This document shows positions 19,107 to 37,403 of a stretch of DNA of 64,000 nucleotides, in pieces. Each line of letters starts with the position of its first letter. The first letter of the stretch is position 1. The notes under the pieces were generated by a model that saw only the letters and a program-made list of their open reading frames with translations, had not been told where the DNA came from and did no database searches. The translations under genes and the position numbers were made by a program. The DNA comes from a virus (taxonomy: Duplodnaviria > Caudoviricetes), in IMG/VR virus record IMGVR_UViG_3300007214_000006. One strand, written 5' to 3'.

Positions 19107-19118
19107 AGTGTATAATAA
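19107..19118 (+). promoter_or_regulatory. candidate phage late-promoter motif (AGTGTATAATAA)
   Basis: Intergenic copy of the recurrent motif, overlapping the terminator stem. Confidence 0.5.
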
Positions 19119-19144
19119 GCCAGAGTGATCTGGCTTATTTTTTT
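19114..19144 (+). terminator. intrinsic terminator
   Basis: Perfect 11-bp stem AATAAGCCAGA/TCTGGCTTATT, GTGA (GNRA) loop, T-run. Confidence 0.75.
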
Positions 19145-19482: not shown

Positions 19483-19850
19483 TGACTAAAAATTGCTTGT
19501 TGGTATACCCTAATGAATTTATATTTTTTTGTCCTGGTCAAGCACCTTTGACAGACGATAGGTGTCATGGGTCACAAAATCAAAGAATGCTATTCGATAT
19601 CACCGTCCCATCTGGATCAGATTCTGCAGTGGTAGAGATTCAATTAACAAATACTAGAACAACAAAAAAAGAAACATATTTTATATATACGGATCAACAG
19701 TGCTCATGCTCAAATAATTGTGTCATAGATCAAGGAATTAAAAATAATAATAAATATTCTATAGCAATTAATATTGGTAATTTAATTCCTGGAGAACAGT
19801 ATTCTGGCATAGCGTGTGTTAACTATATAGATATTCTAACTGGTGTATAG
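19482..19850 (+). CDS. hypothetical beta-rich protein with one Ig-like repeat
   Basis: IAINIGNLIPGEQYSG resembles repeats in the downstream genes. Confidence 0.6.
   Translation: MTKNCLLVYPNEFIFFCPGQAPLTDDRCHGSQNQRMLFDITVPSGSDSAVVEIQLTNTRTTKKETYFIYTDQQCSCSNNCVIDQGIKNNNKYSIAINIGNLIPGEQYSGIACVNYIDILTGV
19842..19850 (+). promoter_or_regulatory. candidate phage late-promoter motif (GGTGTATAG)
   Basis: Motif overlaps the TAG stop, upstream of 19897. Confidence 0.35.
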
Positions 19851-19896: not shown

Positions 19897-21549
19897 ATGA
19901 TCATATATTCTAAAAATTCTATATTTACATACGATGCTGAGACTTCGTTTGATCTATTAAACCCACCAAAAAACGATAAATATATAGCTAGTTATAATAA
20001 ATTTATTAATCATGTTTTATATATATATGGTCAAATAAAAACAGATGGATCTATTCCAGTCTTTTTTACGAAAGCTATGGAATCTGGAACACAAAGACAA
20101 GCAGATAGAAACAGCACATTAACTGCTCTAGAGCCAAATAAAACATATTATATTGTTTTATCTTCTGATGAAATTTTACCTTTAACTATCCCAACTAATA
20201 TTACATCCGAAGAATTTTTATCAACCTATTATTGCCATAATGATGATCGGTGCGATAACGTCGATATATGCAATAAAAGTCTTTATATAGTAAAAAAAGA
20301 CCATCATAATATTTCATTAACTGGTAATTATACTTATGATATTAATTTAACAGTTAGTAATCTCTATTCTTCTAATCAATATTATTATGAAATAGAACCT
20401 GTTTATTCTAATTGGCCCGCAAGAATATCGTCACAGTCTGGTTTTATTTCAATACCATCGAACAATATGGATAATCTAGGCTATACTAGCGGTACAATAA
20501 AATCATTCTTTAGTTATTATCCTAGTGGCGAAAATTATGAAAATAGTATACCATACGATAATAATATAGACATATCTAGTAATTTTTATTATAAAAATAT
20601 TTTTAGTATTCTTAATTTATCTATTTATTCTAATAATATGGATTTATTGTTTACGGATTATATAAATATTAAATGCGATAGTTGTTTACCAAATAAAAAT
20701 AGAAAAAATCCAATTTTTAAATTGTCAAACACGGCAGGAAGTTTTGATAAAATTAACCAAATAGATTGCAGCGGATCTGTGCCTATTTATATAAATTATT
20801 CTGGATTAGATCCATCAAAAACTTATTCTTTTGGTTTTGGATCTGTCAATGGTAATTGGCCAGCAAGAATTTTACCTAAGATAAAAAATCTGGTTCCAGA
20901 ATATTTATACGAAGATCCAGAATCTAATATGGTTTACGGAACAGGAACCGTTGTTGCTAATTTTAGTTTTTCTCCAGTCTATAATCCCTTCCCGTCGTGG
21001 CCAAACTTACAGTACAATCTGGAGTCCTTCGCCAAAGAAAAATTTGTAGATGACAATATATACAATATACTCTCATTATCTGTTTCAGAATCTTCTAATA
21101 ATTTATATAAAGAATCTATAATCATTAAAGGAAACATCGAATCAAATAATGAAAATTGTATAAATAGTTTATATATTAAATTTGATAACACTAGCAATAC
21201 ATATCCTTCTGGCGGTTTAACAGAGACATCTCGACCAGGATCAGAAATCAATTTAACAGATAAATTGTGTTGCAATAAGGATCAAATATTAACAGCAACA
21301 ATTAGTGGAGCATGTTGTGGCAAAGAATACGGATATAGATTTTATAATAGTAATCAGTACACTTCTATCACCCCATTATCTGGCACAATTTCTTTTGGAA
21401 ATGGAGTAGGAAAAATTGGCGCTGTTTATAACTTAAATAATAGACCAGCAACTACAGTAAGATTAGTTATTTTTGATACTACTGATAATACTTATGCTGT
21501 AGATAATATTATTTTACGATGTCCAAATAAAATTCCAATATTACCATAA
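19897..21549 (+). CDS. putative virion protein with repeated Ig-like modules
   Basis: Three VSNL/YSGL..Y.Y....NWP.RI...SG-type repeats. Confidence 0.65.
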
Positions 21550-21560
21550 TAGGAAATAAT

Positions 21561-23849
21561 ATGTCATTGCCAATAGGATATAATAGTGCAAATTATAATA
21601 ACCAAGCCGTCTGGAACGGAGTAAATGGTAATGTCACCTCTGTTGGAACAAATGGTGGACAAAGCGCATATGGTACATTAGATCAATCTGGGAATGTATG
21701 GGAATGGTTAGAGTCATTAAATGAAATAGATGGTAGTATTTATGCAGATATTTTTGGAGGAGCATGGAATAGTGATGCAAATAGTATATCTTGTTATGGG
21801 AAAAATAGTATTAATTACAATACTTTATCCAACAATATTGGAGTTAGACTTGTAAGTTTTGTTTCAAATGATACATTTTTATCTTGTGTAGATATTAATG
21901 ATATAAATAATACAAATGATATAAGAACAGGATACGGGGCGGTATCCTATGGCTATAGAATAATGTTGCGTCCTATTACAAATGCGCAATACTCAGTATT
22001 CTTAAATTCTGTAGATCCTAGTGGATTAAATACATACCAGCTTTATTCTTCATTAATGTCAACATTATTAAATGGTAATAATAATCCAAGGGGAGGAATT
22101 AATTATATATCATCTAATCCAGTTGGACAAAAATATGTTGTTAAAAATAATTTTAATAATAAACCAGTAAATTATGTTTCTTTTTTAAGCGTTGCAAGAA
22201 TGTGTAATTGGTTACACAATGGATCATCCTCAAATATAGATACGGGATCCTATACAATATCTCAAAATTCTGTTATATCAAGAACAAACACGCCTGGTAG
22301 CGAAGCTAAGTATGCAATACCCACTATCAATGAATGGTATAAAGCAGCTTTTTATGACACTAGTGGCGGTTACTGGACATATGCTACTCAAAGTAATAGT
22401 CTACCATGTTCTATCGGCACCATAGGATGTGCATCTTTTGATAGCAGTATTGGTGATGGCGGTATCACAAATATTGATCCCACGCCCACGCCTACTCCAA
22501 CTAATACCATAACTCCAACAAAAACAACAACTCCCACCCCAAGTAAAAGTATTGGGGCCAGTCCTACTCCGACACAAACACGGACACTAACACCAACAAA
22601 TACTACAACCCCTACCATAACACTGAGTCCAACACAAACACCAACTATTTCTGTGAGCCCTACGCAAACCCCAACTATTTCGATCACGCCAACAAAAACT
22701 GTTACAAAGACTCCTACAATCACCCCAACTATTACTAGTACTACCACTCCAACAAGAACACAAACAAAAACACCAACAAAAACTCCCACAATTACTCCTA
22801 CTAGGACACCAACTCTAACAATAACGCCTACAATTACTCCTAGTATAACTCCAACTATTTCTTTGAGTCCATCTCCTGAGCCATGTTCTAATCCAGAATT
22901 ATTAGATAAAATATATAATATTAAAGAATATCCAGCTACTGCTTTGACGCCCATATCATTGTTATCTCCTCCAAGCGGATTATCTAATAGTAAAGCTACT
23001 AAAGATTGGCATAATTTAATAAATAGCATATCTACAATTTACAATTCGTCAAATACTTTATTTTTTAATACTGTAACTAGTGGAAATAATATTTTGCCAA
23101 ATACAAAATCAACTCTAACAAATCTTGTACCTGGAGAAGCATATTATTTCATTTTGAAAGAAGACTCGAAGCTACCCGTTAAATTACCTATATATAATAA
23201 AGTAAAAACAGAATATTTATCTAAAAATTTAATAAATAATATAAGCGCATTATCTATAAATGATGCAAAAATCAAAACACTAACAAATAATGAAAAAATA
23301 TCTTTTATAACCGCTGTACAAGCTATCAAAGAAGATATAGAAAAATATAAATATGATAGTTTAAAATTAAATCAATTAGAGGCACTATTTAATGAATTAT
23401 TATTAGAATATTCAAATAATGATTTTGGATGCGATAAAACAATACATTATACAAATATAAAAGATAATTGCTTAAGTTACTATATCTCTAATGCATCTGA
23501 TAATACATATAAAGAAATACCAGGATTTATAAATACAAATTTTAATTTTCAAACTATAGAAATGTCTGGACAAGGAAATCTTACACAACAAATAAATATT
23601 TTTATATCTGGTTTACCAGATACAAACAAATACAATGTTAGATACCACTACAGATTAAAAGATGCGTCACAGGCATGCTCTGTATTTCCATTATCTGGTA
23701 CAATAATACCAGATGCTAATAATTCATCTAATATATCTAGCGTTTTTGAATTTTGTGCCGACGCAATTAGGGGGCAGCACGCTAATTTGCTAAAAGCAAC
23801 CCCATCGCCAACTCCAAGCATAACTCCAACAATAACTCCATCAGTATAA
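21561..23849 (+). CDS. FGE-sulfatase (SUMF1)-fold protein, halves in reversed order, with Thr/Pro linker
   Basis: [13 protein letters not shown] precedes [34 protein letters not shown]; TPT tract at about 22480-22885. Confidence 0.8.
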
Positions 23850-23854
23850 TTACT

Positions 23855-26845
23855 ATGAACAATATATATTCTAACATCGAACTTGTTATAGATATTGAAC
23901 CAAAAATATCAACCATAAATACTGCTAATTATAAAAAATTAGCAAACTGGAATGGTTCTATCAATGGTAATGTTACAACAACAGGATCTAACGGAAATTG
24001 TTCATCATATGGAATTTATGATATGGCTGGTCAAGTTTACGAATGGACAGACTCATGTTCTTCTTCGTTATTAGGCACTGCCTTGGATTCTTCTTTTAGC
24101 TCTGGGGCATCGTCAAAAAATTCAAATGTTAAAATACTTAGAGGAGGATCTTTTGCAGATTCCGATCATTTAAATCTTAGTAAACTATATCGAAAAGAGC
24201 TCGATATATTTTCTATGATAGATTATGGCTGTATAGGATTCAGGGTGGCAAATAATGAATCAACAAATTTTGCAAGACCTTTGGATCCAAATAGTATATA
24301 TACTACAATAAATAATACGGGAAATTTGCCAGATGATTGTTATCAAGCTATTGATTCTAAATTAGGTCAAGTAAATTATATATATAATATACAAAATCAA
24401 TTAGTTACAAACAGCGAATATTGTCTGTATTTAAATACTATAGATCCATCTGGTACTAATTCATCATATATTTATGATACTAGAATGTCATCATCCCCCG
24501 TTGGAGGAATTACCTATAATGGTTGTGCTACTACAGGCTCGGTATATTCTGTAAAAAATAATTTTGGAGACAAACCAGTAACATTTATTAAATGGATTAT
24601 GGCAGCACAATATTGCAATTGGTTAACAAACAACCAGCAATCCGATATATCTTCCATCGCGTCGGGATCATATGACACAACAATTATAAATAATACCGGC
24701 ATAGCAACGTATTCTGGGATATTTAGACAAAATACAGCAAAATATTTTCTTCCTAGTGAAAACGAATGGTACAAGGCCGCATACTATGATGCTTCTAGTA
24801 ATAAATATTGGATGTATCCAACACAAAGTGACGAAACACCAACAGCCGTTATATCAAATTCTTCTGGAATTGCCATATCATCAGAAAACCAATCTAGTTC
24901 GACACAAATAATACCCATAATATTTAGAACAAACGATATCTTAAAAACATCCGATAAACAAGATATAAAACACATTGTTGAAAATTCTATCGACGTTAAT
25001 CTTTATAATAGATACATAAATACATTAAATAAAAATTACTGTCCTTCTGTTAATATTCTGTCTATAAATTCTTCCGGACAAAATATAATTAATTCTGGAA
25101 CCCCAGAGTCTTCCGGAACTTCGGGCATTAATCAGTCTTATAATTATATTTTCCCAATAACGGCTGAAGTGTCAAACCTTAATCCTGGACAGAAATATTA
25201 TTATTCATTTTCGTCTGATGGATCAAATTGGCCAAGTAGAATAGAGCCTCTTTCTGGATCTTTCGTTGCTTTTAATAATAATTTTAATATTAATGCTATA
25301 TTAAAATTTAAACCAAATGACATTTATCAAATAGCTGCTTTTAATACTAATCTAAATTATAATCATTTAGAACAAAATGAACTTAGATTATATAAAAACA
25401 TGGATATATATAATAATTTAAATATTGATGTCTCCACAGAAGATTGTTCATTATGCAGAGATTCCTTGAGGATATCATTTAATCAAAATTTACTTCCAAC
25501 TATATCTCAATTCGATAAAGCTGGCATATCTTTTCAGTCACCATCATCACATCATGTAATTAATGTTAGTGGTGGCCTATGTGATCAATACATTCCTTTG
25601 GTAATGAATGTTACAGATCCGCAACCTGGTAAAATATACTCTTTTACATTATCTTCTAATGAAACAGGTGTTATATTTATGCCCAATAGCGGAAGAGTTT
25701 CTTTTGGCGGAGCTAGCGGCAACCCAAATAGAATAACTTCTCTATTAGCTTTAAATGATGCTCAAAATGCTATTGCAAAAGTTAATTTATCTAGAATAGA
25801 TATTCCCTATAGCGTATCTGATTATATAGGTGTTTTCTGTATGGAAAACTGTGATAATAGTTTAAGTAATTATGCAAATTATAATAATAGAGCAATATGG
25901 GGCTATTGCGTTGATAATTGCCCAGGAAAACCACCAGAATTAAGAAGATTTGCTAGTGTTACAAGAGCCGGTACAAATGGTGGTCCAAGTTCTTATGGAA
26001 CATATGATCAAGATGGGAATATCTTAGAGATATGTTATACTACAAATAATATTAGTTTAACTGGCTATGTTTATCGTGGAGGATCATTTAATAGTACTAT
26101 TATTGGTAAATATGCTAGATATGAATTCGATACAGATTCTAATGATCAATACGACGATTATATAGGTTTTAGAATAGCATCATATACAAATCCATATAAT
26201 TTTAGTGGTATGATACCAATTACCGACATAGGATCTCCGCCACTTGGCAACAATTATGATCCTGATACCGGATATGGTTCTGTAAACTATAATTACCAAA
26301 TTGGCGTATATCCTGTTACTAATTTTGAATATACTCAATTTTTAAATAGTACTGCTACAACTGGATATAATGGGGACAGTAATAATCTTTCGTCATTATG
26401 GTTATATAACCCATACATGAGTGGCTGTTATGGCGGAATAGATAGAACTGGCAGTGGCACATTAGCAAGTCCTTATGTGTACACGACTCAAACAAATATG
26501 CTTTATAAACCAGTAAGATTTGTAAATAGAAGAATGGCATGTAGATATATAAATTGGCTTCATAATAATAAACAAAGCGGATGGCAATATCAAATTAGTG
26601 GTGCTTATGTATTAAACAACAATTCGGATGGTTTTAGTACTTTTGGCACAACAATCGGATGGGTTAGGTCTTCTTGTGCTCGTTATTTCCTTCCAAATGA
26701 AGATGAATGGTATAAGGCCGCATATTATGCTGGTACAAACTCAAATAATATAACATCTAATTATTGGACATACGCAACACAAAGTAATGTTTTGCCCGGT
26801 TGGGTAACGGCTACAGATAGCGGCCATGGTATTATTCCTAATTAA
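23855..26845 (+). CDS. protein with two reversed-order FGE-sulfatase-fold domains flanking Ig-like modules
   Basis: YGIYDMAGQVYEW/RGGSF/GFRV then EWYKAAYY, repeated as YGTYDQDGN/RGGSF/GFRI then EWYKAAYY. Confidence 0.8.
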   Translation: MNNIYSNIELVIDIEPKISTINTANYKKLANWNGSINGNVTTTGSNGNCSSYGIYDMAGQVYEWTDSCSSSLLGTALDSSFSSGASSKNSNVKILRGGSFADSDHLNLSKLYRKELDIFSMIDYGCIGFRVANNESTNFARPLDPNSIYTTINNTGNLPDDCYQAIDSKLGQVNYIYNIQNQLVTNSEYCLYLNTIDPSGTNSSYIYDTRMSSSPVGGITYNGCATTGSVYSVKNNFGDKPVTFIKWIMAAQYCNWLTNNQQSDISSIASGSYDTTIINNTGIATYSGIFRQNTAKYFLPSENEWYKAAYYDASSNKYWMYPTQSDETPTAVISNSSGIAISSENQSSSTQIIPIIFRTNDILKTSDKQDIKHIVENSIDVNLYNRYINTLNKNYCPSVNILSINSSGQNIINSGTPESSGTSGINQSYNYIFPITAEVSNLNPGQKYYYSFSSDGSNWPSRIEPLSGSFVAFNNNFNINAILKFKPNDIYQIAAFNTNLNYNHLEQNELRLYKNMDIYNNLNIDVSTEDCSLCRDSLRISFNQNLLPTISQFDKAGISFQSPSSHHVINVSGGLCDQYIPLVMNVTDPQPGKIYSFTLSSNETGVIFMPNSGRVSFGGASGNPNRITSLLALNDAQNAIAKVNLSRIDIPYSVSDYIGVFCMENCDNSLSNYANYNNRAIWGYCVDNCPGKPPELRRFASVTRAGTNGGPSSYGTYDQDGNILEICYTTNNISLTGYVYRGGSFNSTIIGKYARYEFDTDSNDQYDDYIGFRIASYTNPYNFSGMIPITDIGSPPLGNNYDPDTGYGSVNYNYQIGVYPVTNFEYTQFLNSTATTGYNGDSNNLSSLWLYNPYMSGCYGGIDRTGSGTLASPYVYTTQTNMLYKPVRFVNRRMACRYINWLHNNKQSGWQYQISGAYVLNNNSDGFSTFGTTIGWVRSSCARYFLPNEDEWYKAAYYAGTNSNNITSNYWTYATQSNVLPGWVTATDSGHGIIPN

Positions 26846-26873: not shown

Positions 26874-29381
26874 ATGTTACATATATATAATCCAAATCTT
26901 AGACAAGATACAGAAGAAAATATTATTGTTACTAACGCTAAGATTTTGAACGCCAATGGCACATACTTTAAAACAACCTTTTGGGTCCCTATCCCTGGCA
27001 CAAGAGGTCGTTCGTATATATGGACAAAAGATAAATTAGATTCTTATCCAAGAATTTTTAGATCTAATATAAATATTTGGGCTTTGGTTTTTTCATCGTC
27101 ATCTTCGGGAGCTTATTTTAGCGAACTTTCCATAGACCAACAAACCAATGATTATCCTCCAGAATTTTATACCGGAGATATTCCACTATATAATTGGCAA
27201 TATATTAATGATCCACAAGACGTATTAAATATTATATACAATAGGTACTCCCCTGGAGATCCTGGTAGCGGAGAAAATGTTACACAACAACCAACTATAT
27301 ATAAGCCTTATAAAAAATTATATAATAATAAACCATCAGAATTTGGAAAAGAAAATATATCATCAGATCCTCAAATAAATAACAATAAAACTTTTATTCC
27401 TAAAAATAATGGGATTAATCAATCAAAATCTATTTATATAAATAAAATATCTCAAGCTATTAAAGATGATAAATTTAGCTTAGAAAAGGGCGATTTTGAA
27501 ACAGGATATCCTCAAACAGCAGATTACGATTTATGTGATCAAAAATTATCAATTGTCTATTCTATGAATAAAGATAAATATAGTAGACACATAAACAATA
27601 ATACTATAGATAATACGATAGTTAATAAAAATCCTCATGACTCACAATCTTGTAATATTGATCCACCAACACCATCTCCTAGCATACCAATACTAGCAAC
27701 TTCCACACCAACACCAACACCAACTGCTACTATTACAACAACCCCAACCGTAACCAAAACTCCTACACCAACGCGAACAACCACAAAAACACCCACATCA
27801 ACAGTTACTCCAACGCGAACAACCACAAAAACACCCACATCAACAGTTACTCCAACACGAATTGTTGTTCTAACACCAACACAAACACCAACACAAACAC
27901 AGACACCAACACGAACACAAACACCAACACCAACACAAACACAGACACCAACACGAACACAGAGCCCAACACCGACAACAACTCGGACCCCAACAGCTTC
28001 TCCAATTATAAATAATTGTAATTATTTCCAAAAATTAATAAATATACCTGGAAGTTGGATAGATATAACATGTTCTGCTGATGGTCAAAAAGTTGTTGCC
28101 ATAGCCGACAATGATTCCGTGGATCCTCAAGCAATTGGGGCACATCTTAGCATAAACGGAGGAATATCCTGGACGAGTATATCGTCAAGATCAGATTTAA
28201 TCGGATGTTTCATATCAAAAAATGGACAAATTATAGTATTACACAACGAAAACGAGATATTTGTATCATCTAATAATGGAGCATCTTTTAATCAAACAAA
28301 TTTTGGTCCAGTTTGGCCTTATAGATTCGACTTCGAAGGTTCGTCACTTTGCGCATCTAATGATGGTAGTATTATATATGTTGTTGACTGGTATAGAAGA
28401 AATATTTATAAAAGCACAAATTATGGAATTAATTGGACAACTATACAAATAACATCAGATTCTACTCAATACATAACATCTATAGCTTGTTCTAGTAATG
28501 GTTCGAAACTATTAGCCACAGGAAATAATTTTAGTAATGGAAAAGTATTTGTAAGTAATAATAGTGGTGAAAATTGGTCAGAACATATTTTAGGGCCAGA
28601 GCCTGTGGCTTATTTAAATGGAGCATGTGTGTCTGCGGATGGTAGCAAAATGTTGGTTTCTGTCAGACAGTTTGGAGCAAGTTTTCAAAGACCGGATATA
28701 TTCAATGGAATGTGGAGAAGTCTTGATGGTGGCATAACATGGTCAAATATATATTGGCCTGTAGATAATAATCTAATCGTTAATGATTTTGCTGCGGTTG
28801 TCGTATGCTCTGATGATTTTAATACAATTGTAGGTGTCACGCCAGGCGGTTATTCATATATAGTAAGCAAAGATGGAGGTAATTCTTGGGAATCATTGGT
28901 TGATCTTAATAAGCCCACTTCAATCCAAACAAGATATATTAGCGGAGCAGCCATTACAGCAAACGGAAATATGGTATATTTGTCTGCTTATGGTGGACTA
29001 AGAATAAATGCTGATCAGTCGATGGAACAATTTCGTGGATCAGAATATGTTTATAAAGCAAGTTGTGAACTATTACCCGGTGGCCCTCAAACAACGCCAA
29101 CCTCTACGCCAACCATTACGCCAACAAAAACCTCTACGCCAACCATTACGCCAACAAAAACATCTACCCCAACTATTACTCCAACAAAAACTTTAACTCC
29201 GACAAAAACTTCGACACCTGGAGTTAGTCCTAGCCCCACAAGAACATCAACTGTTACCCCAACCAAGACTATTACTCCAACAAAAACTTCAACCCCAACT
29301 AAAACCCCAACACCAACCCCATCATCGTCAGAGAGTAAATTATTTACTATGTTTTTAGCATGGAAAGACTATAACCCTTAA
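26874..29381 (+). CDS. Asp-box (BNR/sialidase-like) beta-propeller protein flanked by Thr/Pro tracts
   Basis: Six S.D/N.G..W/F boxes ([47 protein letters not shown]). Confidence 0.8.
27768..27851 (+). repeat. exact 42-nt tandem duplication within a Thr/Pro tract
   Basis: ccaacgcgaacaaccacaaaaacacccacatcaacagttact x2. Confidence 0.85.
29101..29160 (+). repeat. exact 30-nt tandem duplication within a Thr/Pro tract
   Basis: cctctacgccaaccattacgccaacaaaaa x2. Confidence 0.9.
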
Positions 29382-35463: not shown

Positions 35464-35475
35464 GGTGTATAATAA
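35464..35475 (+). promoter_or_regulatory. candidate phage late-promoter motif (GGTGTATAATAA)
   Basis: Intergenic, upstream of AAGGAG and the ATG at 35499. Confidence 0.55.
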
Positions 35476-35744: not shown

Positions 35745-37403
35745 ATGCCAATTATAAGAATTAACGAATTACCAGAAAATACTAATATTAGTGGTAATGA
35801 TTTATTGGTAACTATGGATGATCCTAATGGCGCTGCTATCACAAAAAAAATTACTGTAAATTCATTATTGTCTCTTGGTTCTGGCGCCCAAGGACCACAA
35901 GGAAATCAAGGCTTTCAGGGTGCTCAAGGCAACCAAGGAAACACTGGAGCACAAGGTCCGCAGGGTACTCAAGGACTTACTGGACCACAAGGTTCAAGCG
36001 GAGCCCAGGGAAATCAGGGTTTTCAGGGAAATCAAGGTTACCAAGGTAGTCCAGACGGTAATCAAGGGCCAGACGGTAATCAAGGTCCTGACGGTAATCA
36101 AGGTCCCGACGGTAATCAAGGACCAGACGGTAATCAAGGTCCTCAAGGAGATCAAGGTTATCAGGGTTATCAAGGTGATCAGGGTAATCAAGGCGATCAG
36201 GGCTACCAAGGTTTTCAAGGTCCGCAAGGAGACGAAGGACCACAAGGTAGTCAATCTTTTAATTATATGGGAACTTATAACAATGGCATAACATATAATG
36301 AAGGAGATGCTGTCACATATGATGGTTCTTTATATGTAATGACTAATTTTATTGGTGCTGCTGGTTATATTCCCCCATCTTATCCAGCAAATTGGGAATT
36401 AGTTTTGAGTAAAGGAGATCAAGGTGATCAGGGTAATCAAGGATATCAAGGCGATCAGGGCAACCAAGGATATCAAGGTGACCAGGGTAATCAAGGCTAT
36501 CAAGGCGATCAAGGTAATCAAGGCTATCAAGGCGACCAAGGTTATCAAGGAGAAGCAGGGTTTTCTGGCAACCAAGGACCACAAGGAGATCAAGGGTACC
36601 AAGGGTATCAAGGTGATCAGGGTTATCAAGGGGATCAGGGTTATCTAGGAACTCAAGGCGATCAGGGCAACCAAGGATATCAAGGCGATCAAGGCTACCA
36701 AGGCTATCAGGGCGATCAAGGCTATCAGGGCGATCAAGGCTATCAAGGTTACCAAGGAGATCAAGGTGTTCAAGGAGATATTGGGCCTCAAGGTATTGAT
36801 CCTGGCCCTCAAGGAGACCAAGGTAATCAAGGCTATCAAGGCGACCAGGGCAACCAAGGCGACAATGGTAATCAGGGCGATCAAGGATACCAAGGATATC
36901 AAGGAGATCAAGGATACCAAGGTTACCAAGGCGACCAGGGTTATCAAGGATATCAAGGCGACCAAGGATATCAAGGCGACCAAGGTGTTCAAGGAGATAT
37001 TGGACCTCAAGGTATTGATCCTGGTCCTCAAGGCGATCAAGGTTATCAAGGATATCAAGGCGACCAAGGTTATCAAGGCGATCAAGGGTATCAAGGTGAC
37101 CAGGGCTACCAAGGCTATCAAGGCGACCAAGGATATCAAGGGCATCAAGGCGACCAAGGTTATCAAGGCGATCAAGGCTACCAAGGTTACCAAGGCGATC
37201 AGGGCTACCAAGGCGACCAAGGTTATCAAGGATATCAAGGCTACCAAGGTTATCAAGGCGATCAGGGCTACCAAGGTGATCAAGGGCCTGATGGATTACC
37301 GGGCACATCCTTAGATATTAATACCTTGCCGACTAGTGATCCACTTGTTGCTGGACAAGTTTGGAGAGATGGAACAACACTTAAGGTTAGTTTAGGACCT
37401 TGA
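35745..37403 (+). CDS. collagen-like fibre protein, (Gly-X-Gln)n
   Basis: Long QG-periodic triplet repeat; N-terminal IRINELP..KKITV anchor, internal Y..GDAVTY.GS.Y..W module, C-terminal LPTSDP..GQVW.DG..LKVS cap. Confidence 0.9.
   Translation: MPIIRINELPENTNISGNDLLVTMDDPNGAAITKKITVNSLLSLGSGAQGPQGNQGFQGAQGNQGNTGAQGPQGTQGLTGPQGSSGAQGNQGFQGNQGYQGSPDGNQGPDGNQGPDGNQGPDGNQGPDGNQGPQGDQGYQGYQGDQGNQGDQGYQGFQGPQGDEGPQGSQSFNYMGTYNNGITYNEGDAVTYDGSLYVMTNFIGAAGYIPPSYPANWELVLSKGDQGDQGNQGYQGDQGNQGYQGDQGNQGYQGDQGNQGYQGDQGYQGEAGFSGNQGPQGDQGYQGYQGDQGYQGDQGYLGTQGDQGNQGYQGDQGYQGYQGDQGYQGDQGYQGYQGDQGVQGDIGPQGIDPGPQGDQGNQGYQGDQGNQGDNGNQGDQGYQGYQGDQGYQGYQGDQGYQGYQGDQGYQGDQGVQGDIGPQGIDPGPQGDQGYQGYQGDQGYQGDQGYQGDQGYQGYQGDQGYQGHQGDQGYQGDQGYQGYQGDQGYQGDQGYQGYQGYQGYQGDQGYQGDQGPDGLPGTSLDINTLPTSDPLVAGQVWRDGTTLKVSLGP
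36051..36143 (+). repeat. five tandem 18-nt units encoding GPDGNQ
   Basis: gacggtaatcaagg(n)cc(n) starting at 36054, 36072, 36090, 36108 and 36126. Confidence 0.85.

Follow-up and report, generated by a model that had tools for sequence, protein, structure and literature searches.

The 64,000-nucleotide (nt) stretch of DNA analyzed here (the window; IMG/VR record IMGVR_UViG_3300007214_000006, Duplodnaviria, Caudoviricetes) carries two adjacent genes, encoding the proteins P0001 and P0002, with three regions that resemble the FGE-sulfatase domain (Pfam PF03781) of the formylglycine-generating enzyme (FGE). An earlier reading of the sequence alone (the sequence-only reading) held that the two halves of this domain stand in reversed order in all three regions, with the same breakpoint, and offered two explanations, namely a permuted C-type-lectin-like binding domain, or halves that complement each other between neighboring chains and polymerize a fiber or coat. 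The locus therefore raises the question of whether the reversal is real, whether a chain rotated in this way could close into one domain, and what such a domain would do for a phage. The answer that we consider likely as a whole is that these are permuted, noncatalytic lectin-fold domains, which derive from tandem arrays and serve as binding heads on the virion. The domain is a known one in a rotated variant previously undescribed in the literature searched; full-text literature searches found no published description of a permuted FGE-sulfatase domain.

Inverted half-domains in P0001 and P0002

Pfam PF03781 matched each of the three units as two pieces in inverted order, with profile positions of about 150 to 254 preceding positions 36 to 140, and a colinear match over the whole model was obtained in none of them. 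Both proteins exceeded the gathering score of 23.3 (P0002, 100.2 bits; P0001, 45.2 bits). In unit 1 (P0001), amino acids (aa) 10 to 98 correspond to profile positions 150 to 254 (E = 8.7e-06) and aa 131 to 278 to positions 36 to 137 (E = 3.1e-06), and in unit 2 (P0002), aa 24 to 132 correspond to positions 149 to 254 (E = 5.9e-12) and aa 177 to 332 to positions 37 to 142 (E = 8e-09). In unit 3 (P0002), aa 813 to 967 match positions 36 to 133 (E = 1.3e-05), while the match of aa 703 to 775 to positions 165 to 254 (E = 0.0086), weak by itself, is backed by the fact that the three units are paralogs, which align over their full length at 40 to 42% identity. Split matches in inverted order are what the sequence-only reading had expected of this Pfam model, and they confirm its claim of three reversed domains with a common breakpoint; the unit coordinates (Table 1) also agree with those given there.

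The breakpoint is identical in the three units and lies directly before an ANY motif. Unit 1 begins at residue 3 of P0001 and leads into a Thr/Pro linker, unit 2 begins at about residue 17 of P0002 and leads into unrelated sequence, and unit 3 ends 8 residues ahead of the stop codon; the missing halves are absent on both sides of units 1 to 3. In addition, a profile of 29 C-halves (the half that is normally C-terminal, as opposed to the N-half) matches the C-terminal ends of solved structures with the FGE fold, namely pFGE (residues 196 to 266 of 284), TvpA (189 to 292 of 294), and PorK. Circular permutation of units 1 to 3 is almost certain, and the units, judged by their sequences, are homologous to PF03781 in permuted form. 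The chain of each unit would begin at the ANY motif, which normally lies mid-domain, pass through the normally C-terminal half (YG.YDQ.GNV.EW, RGGS, and GFR), cross a short connector into FVxVGD, normally the first strand, and continue through the normally N-terminal half to end at YATQS.

Predicted fold of the rotated unit

Unit 2 was modeled with AlphaFold2 from aa 10 to 345 of P0002 and an alignment of 78 isolated units of C-N order (C-half first), and it was predicted as one compact body (mean predicted local distance difference test score [pLDDT], 86.4; predicted template modeling score [pTM], 0.88). The control, a canonical relative (P0125, aa 30 to 316) modeled with 66 canonical (N-C) units, reached a pLDDT of 90.6 and a pTM of 0.90. 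The 11 main secondary-structure elements of the permuted model pair one-to-one, in rotated arrangement, with those of the canonical relative: the seven elements of the canonical front half lie in their original order at residues 168 to 301 of the permuted model, and the four elements of the back half lie at residues 53 to 108. The N-half also superposes on canonical Planctomycetota models at 2.3 Å over 190 residues.

Fold searches that depend on chain order gave the outcome expected of a permutation. Using Foldseek, the canonical model retrieved 63 chains from the PDB at E <= 1e-3, with alignments of about 300 columns (best, TvpA, 4e-08), and the permuted model retrieved none at this threshold from the PDB (best E, 0.18 over 127 columns) or from BFVD. 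A second aligner placed residues 127 to 330 of the permuted model on the N-terminal part of CarF, TvpA, PorK, and FGE (Z, 4.3 to 6.4) and, separately, residues 10 to 125 on EgtB-IV 334 to 442. Matches from the AFDB clusters and the ESM Atlas were confined to half-domains or were nonrigid matches to tandem proteins. A phmmer search against the PDB listed designer "Pizza" propellers at the top for aa 255 to 339, which we treated as compositional noise. Tools that depend on order thus miss the permuted domain, Pfam giving two partial matches and Foldseek none at the threshold used, with the consequence that large uncultured phages are being searched without such candidate receptor-binding modules coming to notice.

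Occurrence of the two orders in viruses and bacteria

An exhaustive search with HMMER, covering 1.84 billion representative proteins, gave 6,589 relatives (E <= 1e-3). The best 150 of these, read with hidden Markov models (HMMs) of the two halves, comprised 50 proteins with C-N order only, 73 with N-C order only, and 27 that were mixed or partial. At 75 viral loci from IMG/VR (contigs of 7 to 244 kb, with the viral status taken from the IMG/VR classification as given), 94 two-half reading frames were C-N and none was N-C only. At the bacterial loci (the best 80 of at least 588 candidates, from a set of one genome per prokaryote species and mostly from Planctomycetota and Verrucomicrobiota), 84 two-half reading frames were N-C and 0 were C-N. 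All 30 loci fetched from a search of 401 Verrucomicrobiota genomes were likewise N-C or N-C-N-C. In the collections searched, the permuted order is confined to viral contigs; the same permutation recurs in other phages, and the cellular homologs, in which the same order would have counted against the sequence-only reading, are canonical. Half order split viral from bacterial copies at every locus inspected and is a possible marker in freshwater metagenomes.

The permuted form was not found in GenBank phage records (50,697 records searched with the permuted unit by tblastn, no match at E <= 1e-5), PHROGs, or BFVD. The PHROGs collection holds a canonical-order family only (phrog_18508, "kinase"), which matches the C-half alone. 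Domains of this type are likewise absent from those reported in a survey of 224 jumbo phages (PMC7824862).

Phages also carry a variant with a second breakpoint. This second rotation is seen at L137:4591-6834 (+) and L154:4585-6828 (+) and in protein P0041, the first unit of which reads N-half (HMM positions ~105 to 169), C-half, N-half (positions 2 to 122), which places the cut within the N-half; further along this chain is a standard C-N unit. Two long metagenome proteins, P0003 (1883 aa) and P0005 (1787 aa), contain runs of C-halves or N-halves (e.g., N-N-N-N-C-N-N-N), which suggests partial duplications of half-domains.

Probable role and competing explanations

In 50 diverse viral homologs, the unit is fused to RCC1, FG-GAP, and NHL propellers, DUF285, fn3, laminin-G, and DUF642 domains, and the same set also includes Mtd_N (two proteins), the phage tail repeat, and tail-fiber PHROGs. 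Because of these adhesion-type fusions, the collagen-like fiber and Thr/Pro-linker proteins encoded nearby, and the absence of a signal peptide, by eye, from the first residues of P0001 and P0002, we lean toward noncatalytic binding heads on virion fibers or decoration proteins. The units would bind ligands, probably glycans or surface proteins, from the ends of these fibers or decoration proteins, where stalks of Thr/Pro and Ig-like sequence would carry them, and the hypervariable RGGS...GFR segment would form the binding surface. Alternatively, the units could be binding modules outside the virion, either released at lysis or intracellular, that bind, for example, host envelope polymers or glycosylated phage proteins. 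The two genes do adjoin glycosyltransferase, protease, and sialidase-like genes and not tape-measure or baseplate genes; however, the tail-associated domains of some homologs, the collagen-like tail-fiber gene that follows in the same orientation, and the missing signal peptide all speak for the virion, and we consider a nonvirion role unlikely.

Several points weigh against the interpretation as binding heads of a permuted lectin fold. The identity of the fold, as predicted, is drawn from half-by-half matches, pTM, and the order of the secondary-structure elements, and the placement on the virion is drawn from the domains of homologs and from gene neighbors. The N-terminal position of the binding head in P0001 is unusual for tail fibers. 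The division between viral and bacterial copies depends in turn on the IMG/VR classification and on the best-scoring bacterial loci.

The second explanation in the sequence-only reading was that the C-half of one chain is completed by the N-half of its neighbor (P0001 with P0002, or copies of one protein), polymerizing a fiber or coat by domain swapping. The half order permits this in principle, head-to-tail links are conceivable with units at both ends of P0002 and one in P0001, and structure prediction cannot separate an intrachain from a swapped fold. The gap between the half-HMMs at the joined old termini, however, has a median of 20 aa (interquartile range, 17 to 22; n = 248), which looks long enough for closure within the chain, whereas the two half-HMMs abut in canonical units (median, -1). 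An FVxVGDxxNxxD strand motif lies just upstream of the N-half in both permuted and canonical forms, and the real connector from GFRxAS to this strand is for this reason only about 8 to 10 residues long (NPxNxxN). The old C-terminal and N-terminal strands pair in the FGE-type fold, so that with a connector of this length a short hairpin would suffice for intrachain closure of the fold. Proteins with a single unit are common as well: in 83 C-N-only proteins, the unit starts no more than 30 aa from the N terminus in 59 and ends no more than 30 aa from the C terminus in 33, and chains of 307 and 333 aa contain little besides a single unit. Given the connector length, the single-unit proteins, and the one-body model of the monomer, no result supports polymerization, which we regard as quite improbable. 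The same observations favor the permuted C-type-lectin-like binding domain of the sequence-only reading, and the model supports the view that each unit would be a complete autonomous domain of the FGE-sulfatase-type, C-type-lectin fold.

An enzymatic role, in which the units would be FGEs or EgtB/PvdO-like oxidases modifying a phage or host protein, is suggested by the name of the Pfam family and by the source databases, which call the homologs [quoted passage not shown] The catalytic, copper-binding Cys pair of human FGE (Cys336 and Cys341) lies between RGGS(W) and the terminal GFR strand. No cysteine column, however, is conserved among the 78 units or among the 29 C-halves, unit 3 has no cysteine at all between RGGS and GFR, and the unit varies most in the RGGS...GFR segment (column entropy of 2.9 to 3.2 bits in the 78 units). 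These results bear out the earlier remark that no FGE catalytic Cys pair is evident, and because no cysteine is conserved, the units are, as far as their residues indicate, not formylglycine-generating enzymes. The DinB-like iron-binding domain of EgtB/OvoA was found by Pfam in neither P0001 nor P0002, the NCBIfam EgtB model scored 18.5 bits against a cutoff of 360, and the fusion partners are of adhesion type. We therefore hold an enzymatic role to be very improbable; the phage proteins that bear this label appear to be noncatalytic, rotated lectin-like modules.

Three solved proteins offer a comparison. Among solved proteins, the C-half profile matches the sequence of pFGE/SUMF2 best (PDB 1y4j; E = 4.3e-09). 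We take pFGE to be an inactive FGE paralog that also lacks the Cys pair, a further point against an enzymatic role of the units; unlike the phage units, it is eukaryotic, canonical in order, and stand-alone. PorK/GldK of the type IX secretion ring (PDB 9mzu and 9ots) has the FGE fold, which it uses as a structural, nonenzymatic module, and it matches each half separately in both sequence and fold. It differs from the phage units in being a lipoprotein of canonical order with large insertions, and the NCBIfam model of its family scores only 43 bits here, far under the 350-bit cutoff. TvpA of Treponema denticola (PDB 2y3c), the best structural match of the canonical control, belongs to the same fold family and ranks with the top half-matches to the permuted model (Z, 6.3). 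We take TvpA to be a noncatalytic, variable target of a diversity-generating retroelement (DGR) with an FGE-type C-type-lectin fold. Its order is canonical and that of the phage units is rotated.

The most variable segment of the phage units aligns to the C-terminal stretch of TvpA (residues 189 to 292 in the profile alignment), which is presumably the region of TvpA that is varied by its DGR and binds ligand. No DGR-type pair of variable and template repeats was found in the 64-kb window, in which repeats only were looked for and no reverse transcriptase search was made, and neither the window nor the 75 viral loci with 6-kb flanks yielded adenine-biased repeat pairs or a TvpA-type retroelement repeat. 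With no such repeats in the window or the viral loci, the retroelement reading was rejected. It is tempting, though speculative and on balance doubtful, to see the rotated domain as a purposeful phage-specific invention, a class of phage adhesin modules that diversifies by shuffling and not by retroelement mutagenesis. If so, the chain ends would have left the base of the lectin fold for the YATQS/ANY loop, and a stalk could carry the head at either of its ends, or, alternatively, the heads of neighboring chains could interlock; half order would then be a marker, readable from sequence, by which viral and cellular copies can be told apart.

Probable derivation from canonical tandem arrays

The closest sequence relatives of the permuted units are tandem FGE-sulfatase surface proteins of Planctomycetota and Verrucomicrobiota, at 35 to 45% identity per half, with NEWYKAAYY, KPV..V.W..AARYCNWLHN, and YGTYDQ.GNV.EW as common motifs. 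These proteins also supply the nearest canonical units in the trees. They are automatically named "SUMF1/EgtB/PvdO family nonheme iron enzyme," and many carry a PEP-CTERM anchor. Unlike the phage units, they are cellular and always N-then-C, and their first domain starts 40 to 60 residues into the chain, leaving room for a possible signal peptide.

For the trees, all units were reordered to N plus C and each half was aligned to its own HMM. In a FastTree phylogeny of 430 units, one branch (support, 0.977) splits 218 canonical units from 206 permuted and 6 canonical ones, with three order changes. An IQ-TREE analysis of 87 units, including those 6, under a site-mixture model required a single order change (Shimodaira-Hasegawa-like approximate likelihood ratio test [SH-aLRT], 87), and the same approach without the columns adjacent to the junction gave two (SH-aLRT, 95). 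The permuted units thus form essentially one clade with one to three order switches. The 6 canonical units nested in the FastTree phylogeny move to the base under the IQ-TREE mixture model, and reversions to canonical order are not claimed. Some of the canonical units nearest to the permuted clade come from bacterial metagenome-assembled genomes labeled Akkermansiaceae, Planctomycetaceae, Akkermansia muciniphila, and Chthoniobacterales; the remaining ones are metagenome proteins that carry no taxon label.

We infer that the permuted form was derived from canonical tandem arrays, such as those in the Planctomycetota and Verrucomicrobiota surface proteins, by the loss of the outer half-domains. 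The simplest history would be one or very few events of duplication and truncation in a phage lineage that may have taken up a bacterial tandem gene. Pointing to this origin are the similar lengths of the joined-termini gap (median, 20 aa) and of the spacer between units in canonical tandem arrays (median, 26 aa), and the presence of FVxVGD in both forms. The case would be a clean natural example of permutation by duplication, the presumed tandem-array precursor of which persists in bacteria. Many canonical relatives are tandem N-C-N-C arrays, which give colinear C-N matches across domain borders, but it is hardly credible that the C-N order is merely the reading register of decayed or miscalled arrays of this kind, as what adjoins the units is the end of the protein, a Thr/Pro linker, or unrelated sequence and not the missing halves, their layout is kept in 70%-identical relatives, and the consecutive C and N halves of a tandem canonical protein do not form one body when compared to the permuted model (root mean square deviation, 24.9 Å).

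Gene organization and neighborhood

P0001 consists of an N-terminal permuted FGE-type unit, a Thr/Pro linker, and a 320-aa C-terminal region of unassigned fold, while P0002 carries a permuted unit at either end of a middle part of Ig-like beta-sandwich type (Table 1). The two-gene layout is conserved in relatives (L081 to L083), and the C-N ... C-N layout of P0002 is the same in its orthologs at 70 to 72% identity. P0002 is also listed in a protein database on a contig of 222,380 bases.

Table 1. Positions in the window of the features of the P0001/P0002 locus
Feature	Position	Strand	Evidence
GGTGTAT, candidate phage promoter motif	19842..19848	+	Pattern search; lead only
P0001 gene, 762 aa	21561..23849	+	Open reading frame list, translation, Pfam
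Permuted unit 1, P0001 aa 3-290	21567..22430	+	Inverted Pfam split matches; half-HMMs read C-N
Unit 1 halves	C-half 21588-21854; N-half 21951-22394	+	Pfam, half-HMMs
Thr/Pro-rich linker, P0001 aa ~296-440	22446..22880	+	Translation; repeat families
P0002 gene, 996 aa	23855..26845	+	Open reading frame list, translation, Pfam, orthologs
Permuted unit 2 (the modeled unit), P0002 aa 17-336	23903..24862	+	Pfam, AlphaFold2
Unit 2 halves	C-half 23924-24250; N-half 24383-24850	+	Pfam
Most variable segment, RGGS...GFR, P0002 aa 100-129	24152..24241	+	Column entropy, profile alignment to TvpA
P0002 middle, aa 341-665, probably Ig/FN3-like spacer modules	24875..25849	+	Weak matches
Permuted unit 3, P0002 aa 667-988	25853..26818	+	Pfam, paralog alignment, half-HMMs
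Unit 3 halves	C-half 25961-26179; N-half 26291-26755	+	

The middle of P0002 has weak Pfam matches to Pur_ac_phosph_N and PhoD_N and weak shape matches in the Atlas to adhesin beta-sandwiches, and by BLASTP it resembles the gene at 19897-21549. A short Ig-like module is common to that gene and both FGE-bearing proteins (P0002 aa 430 to 643 correspond to its aa 296 to 523, and P0001 aa 501 to 543 to its aa 57 to 99). Atlas look-ups gave no usable family for the C-terminal region of P0001 or the middle of P0002. The TP-coding repeat families of the P0001 linker (D4 to D6) are common to genes at 27.7, 29.1, and 35.1 kb. P0001 closes with a short Thr/Pro tail (23797-23849), and P0002 begins 5 nt further on in another frame. 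This arrangement prompted the idea that a frameshift fuses the two proteins, which was dropped, as the upstream extension of the P0002 frame has no linker-like coding.

The window is AT-rich (~30% G+C), with nearly all genes on the plus strand, and it encodes RecA, DnaB helicase, primase, a split PolIII alpha, ribonucleotide reductase, and many glycosyltransferases. P0001 and P0002 are surrounded by large modular Thr/Pro-linker proteins, namely a BNR/sortilin-type propeller protein, a subtilase into which a ferredoxin is inserted, and a protein that resembles a protease. The next gene (26874-29381, 835 aa) combines a BNR/Asp-box propeller of the sortilin-Vps10 type with long Thr/Pro tracts. 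It matches phrog_15511, as do 25 of the 50 viral FGE-bearing proteins, and this family probably models the linker. The collagen-repeat tail-fiber-like gene downstream (35745-37403) has 9-nt periodic repeats (Gly-X-Y) and very strong matches to PHROG tail fibers.

The GGTGTAT motif in Table 1 lies 49 nt 5' of the gene at 19897-21549, the first in the run of genes to which P0001 and P0002 belong, and a second copy is located at 35464-35470, 5' of the collagen-like fiber gene. GGTGTAW is not enriched across the window (15 found versus 11.4 expected). In the vicinity, a plus-strand terminator-like site was detected only at 19114-19139, and none follows from there to 37900. Because no plus-strand terminator-like site lies between the two GGTGTAT copies, the six large genes may form one transcription unit.

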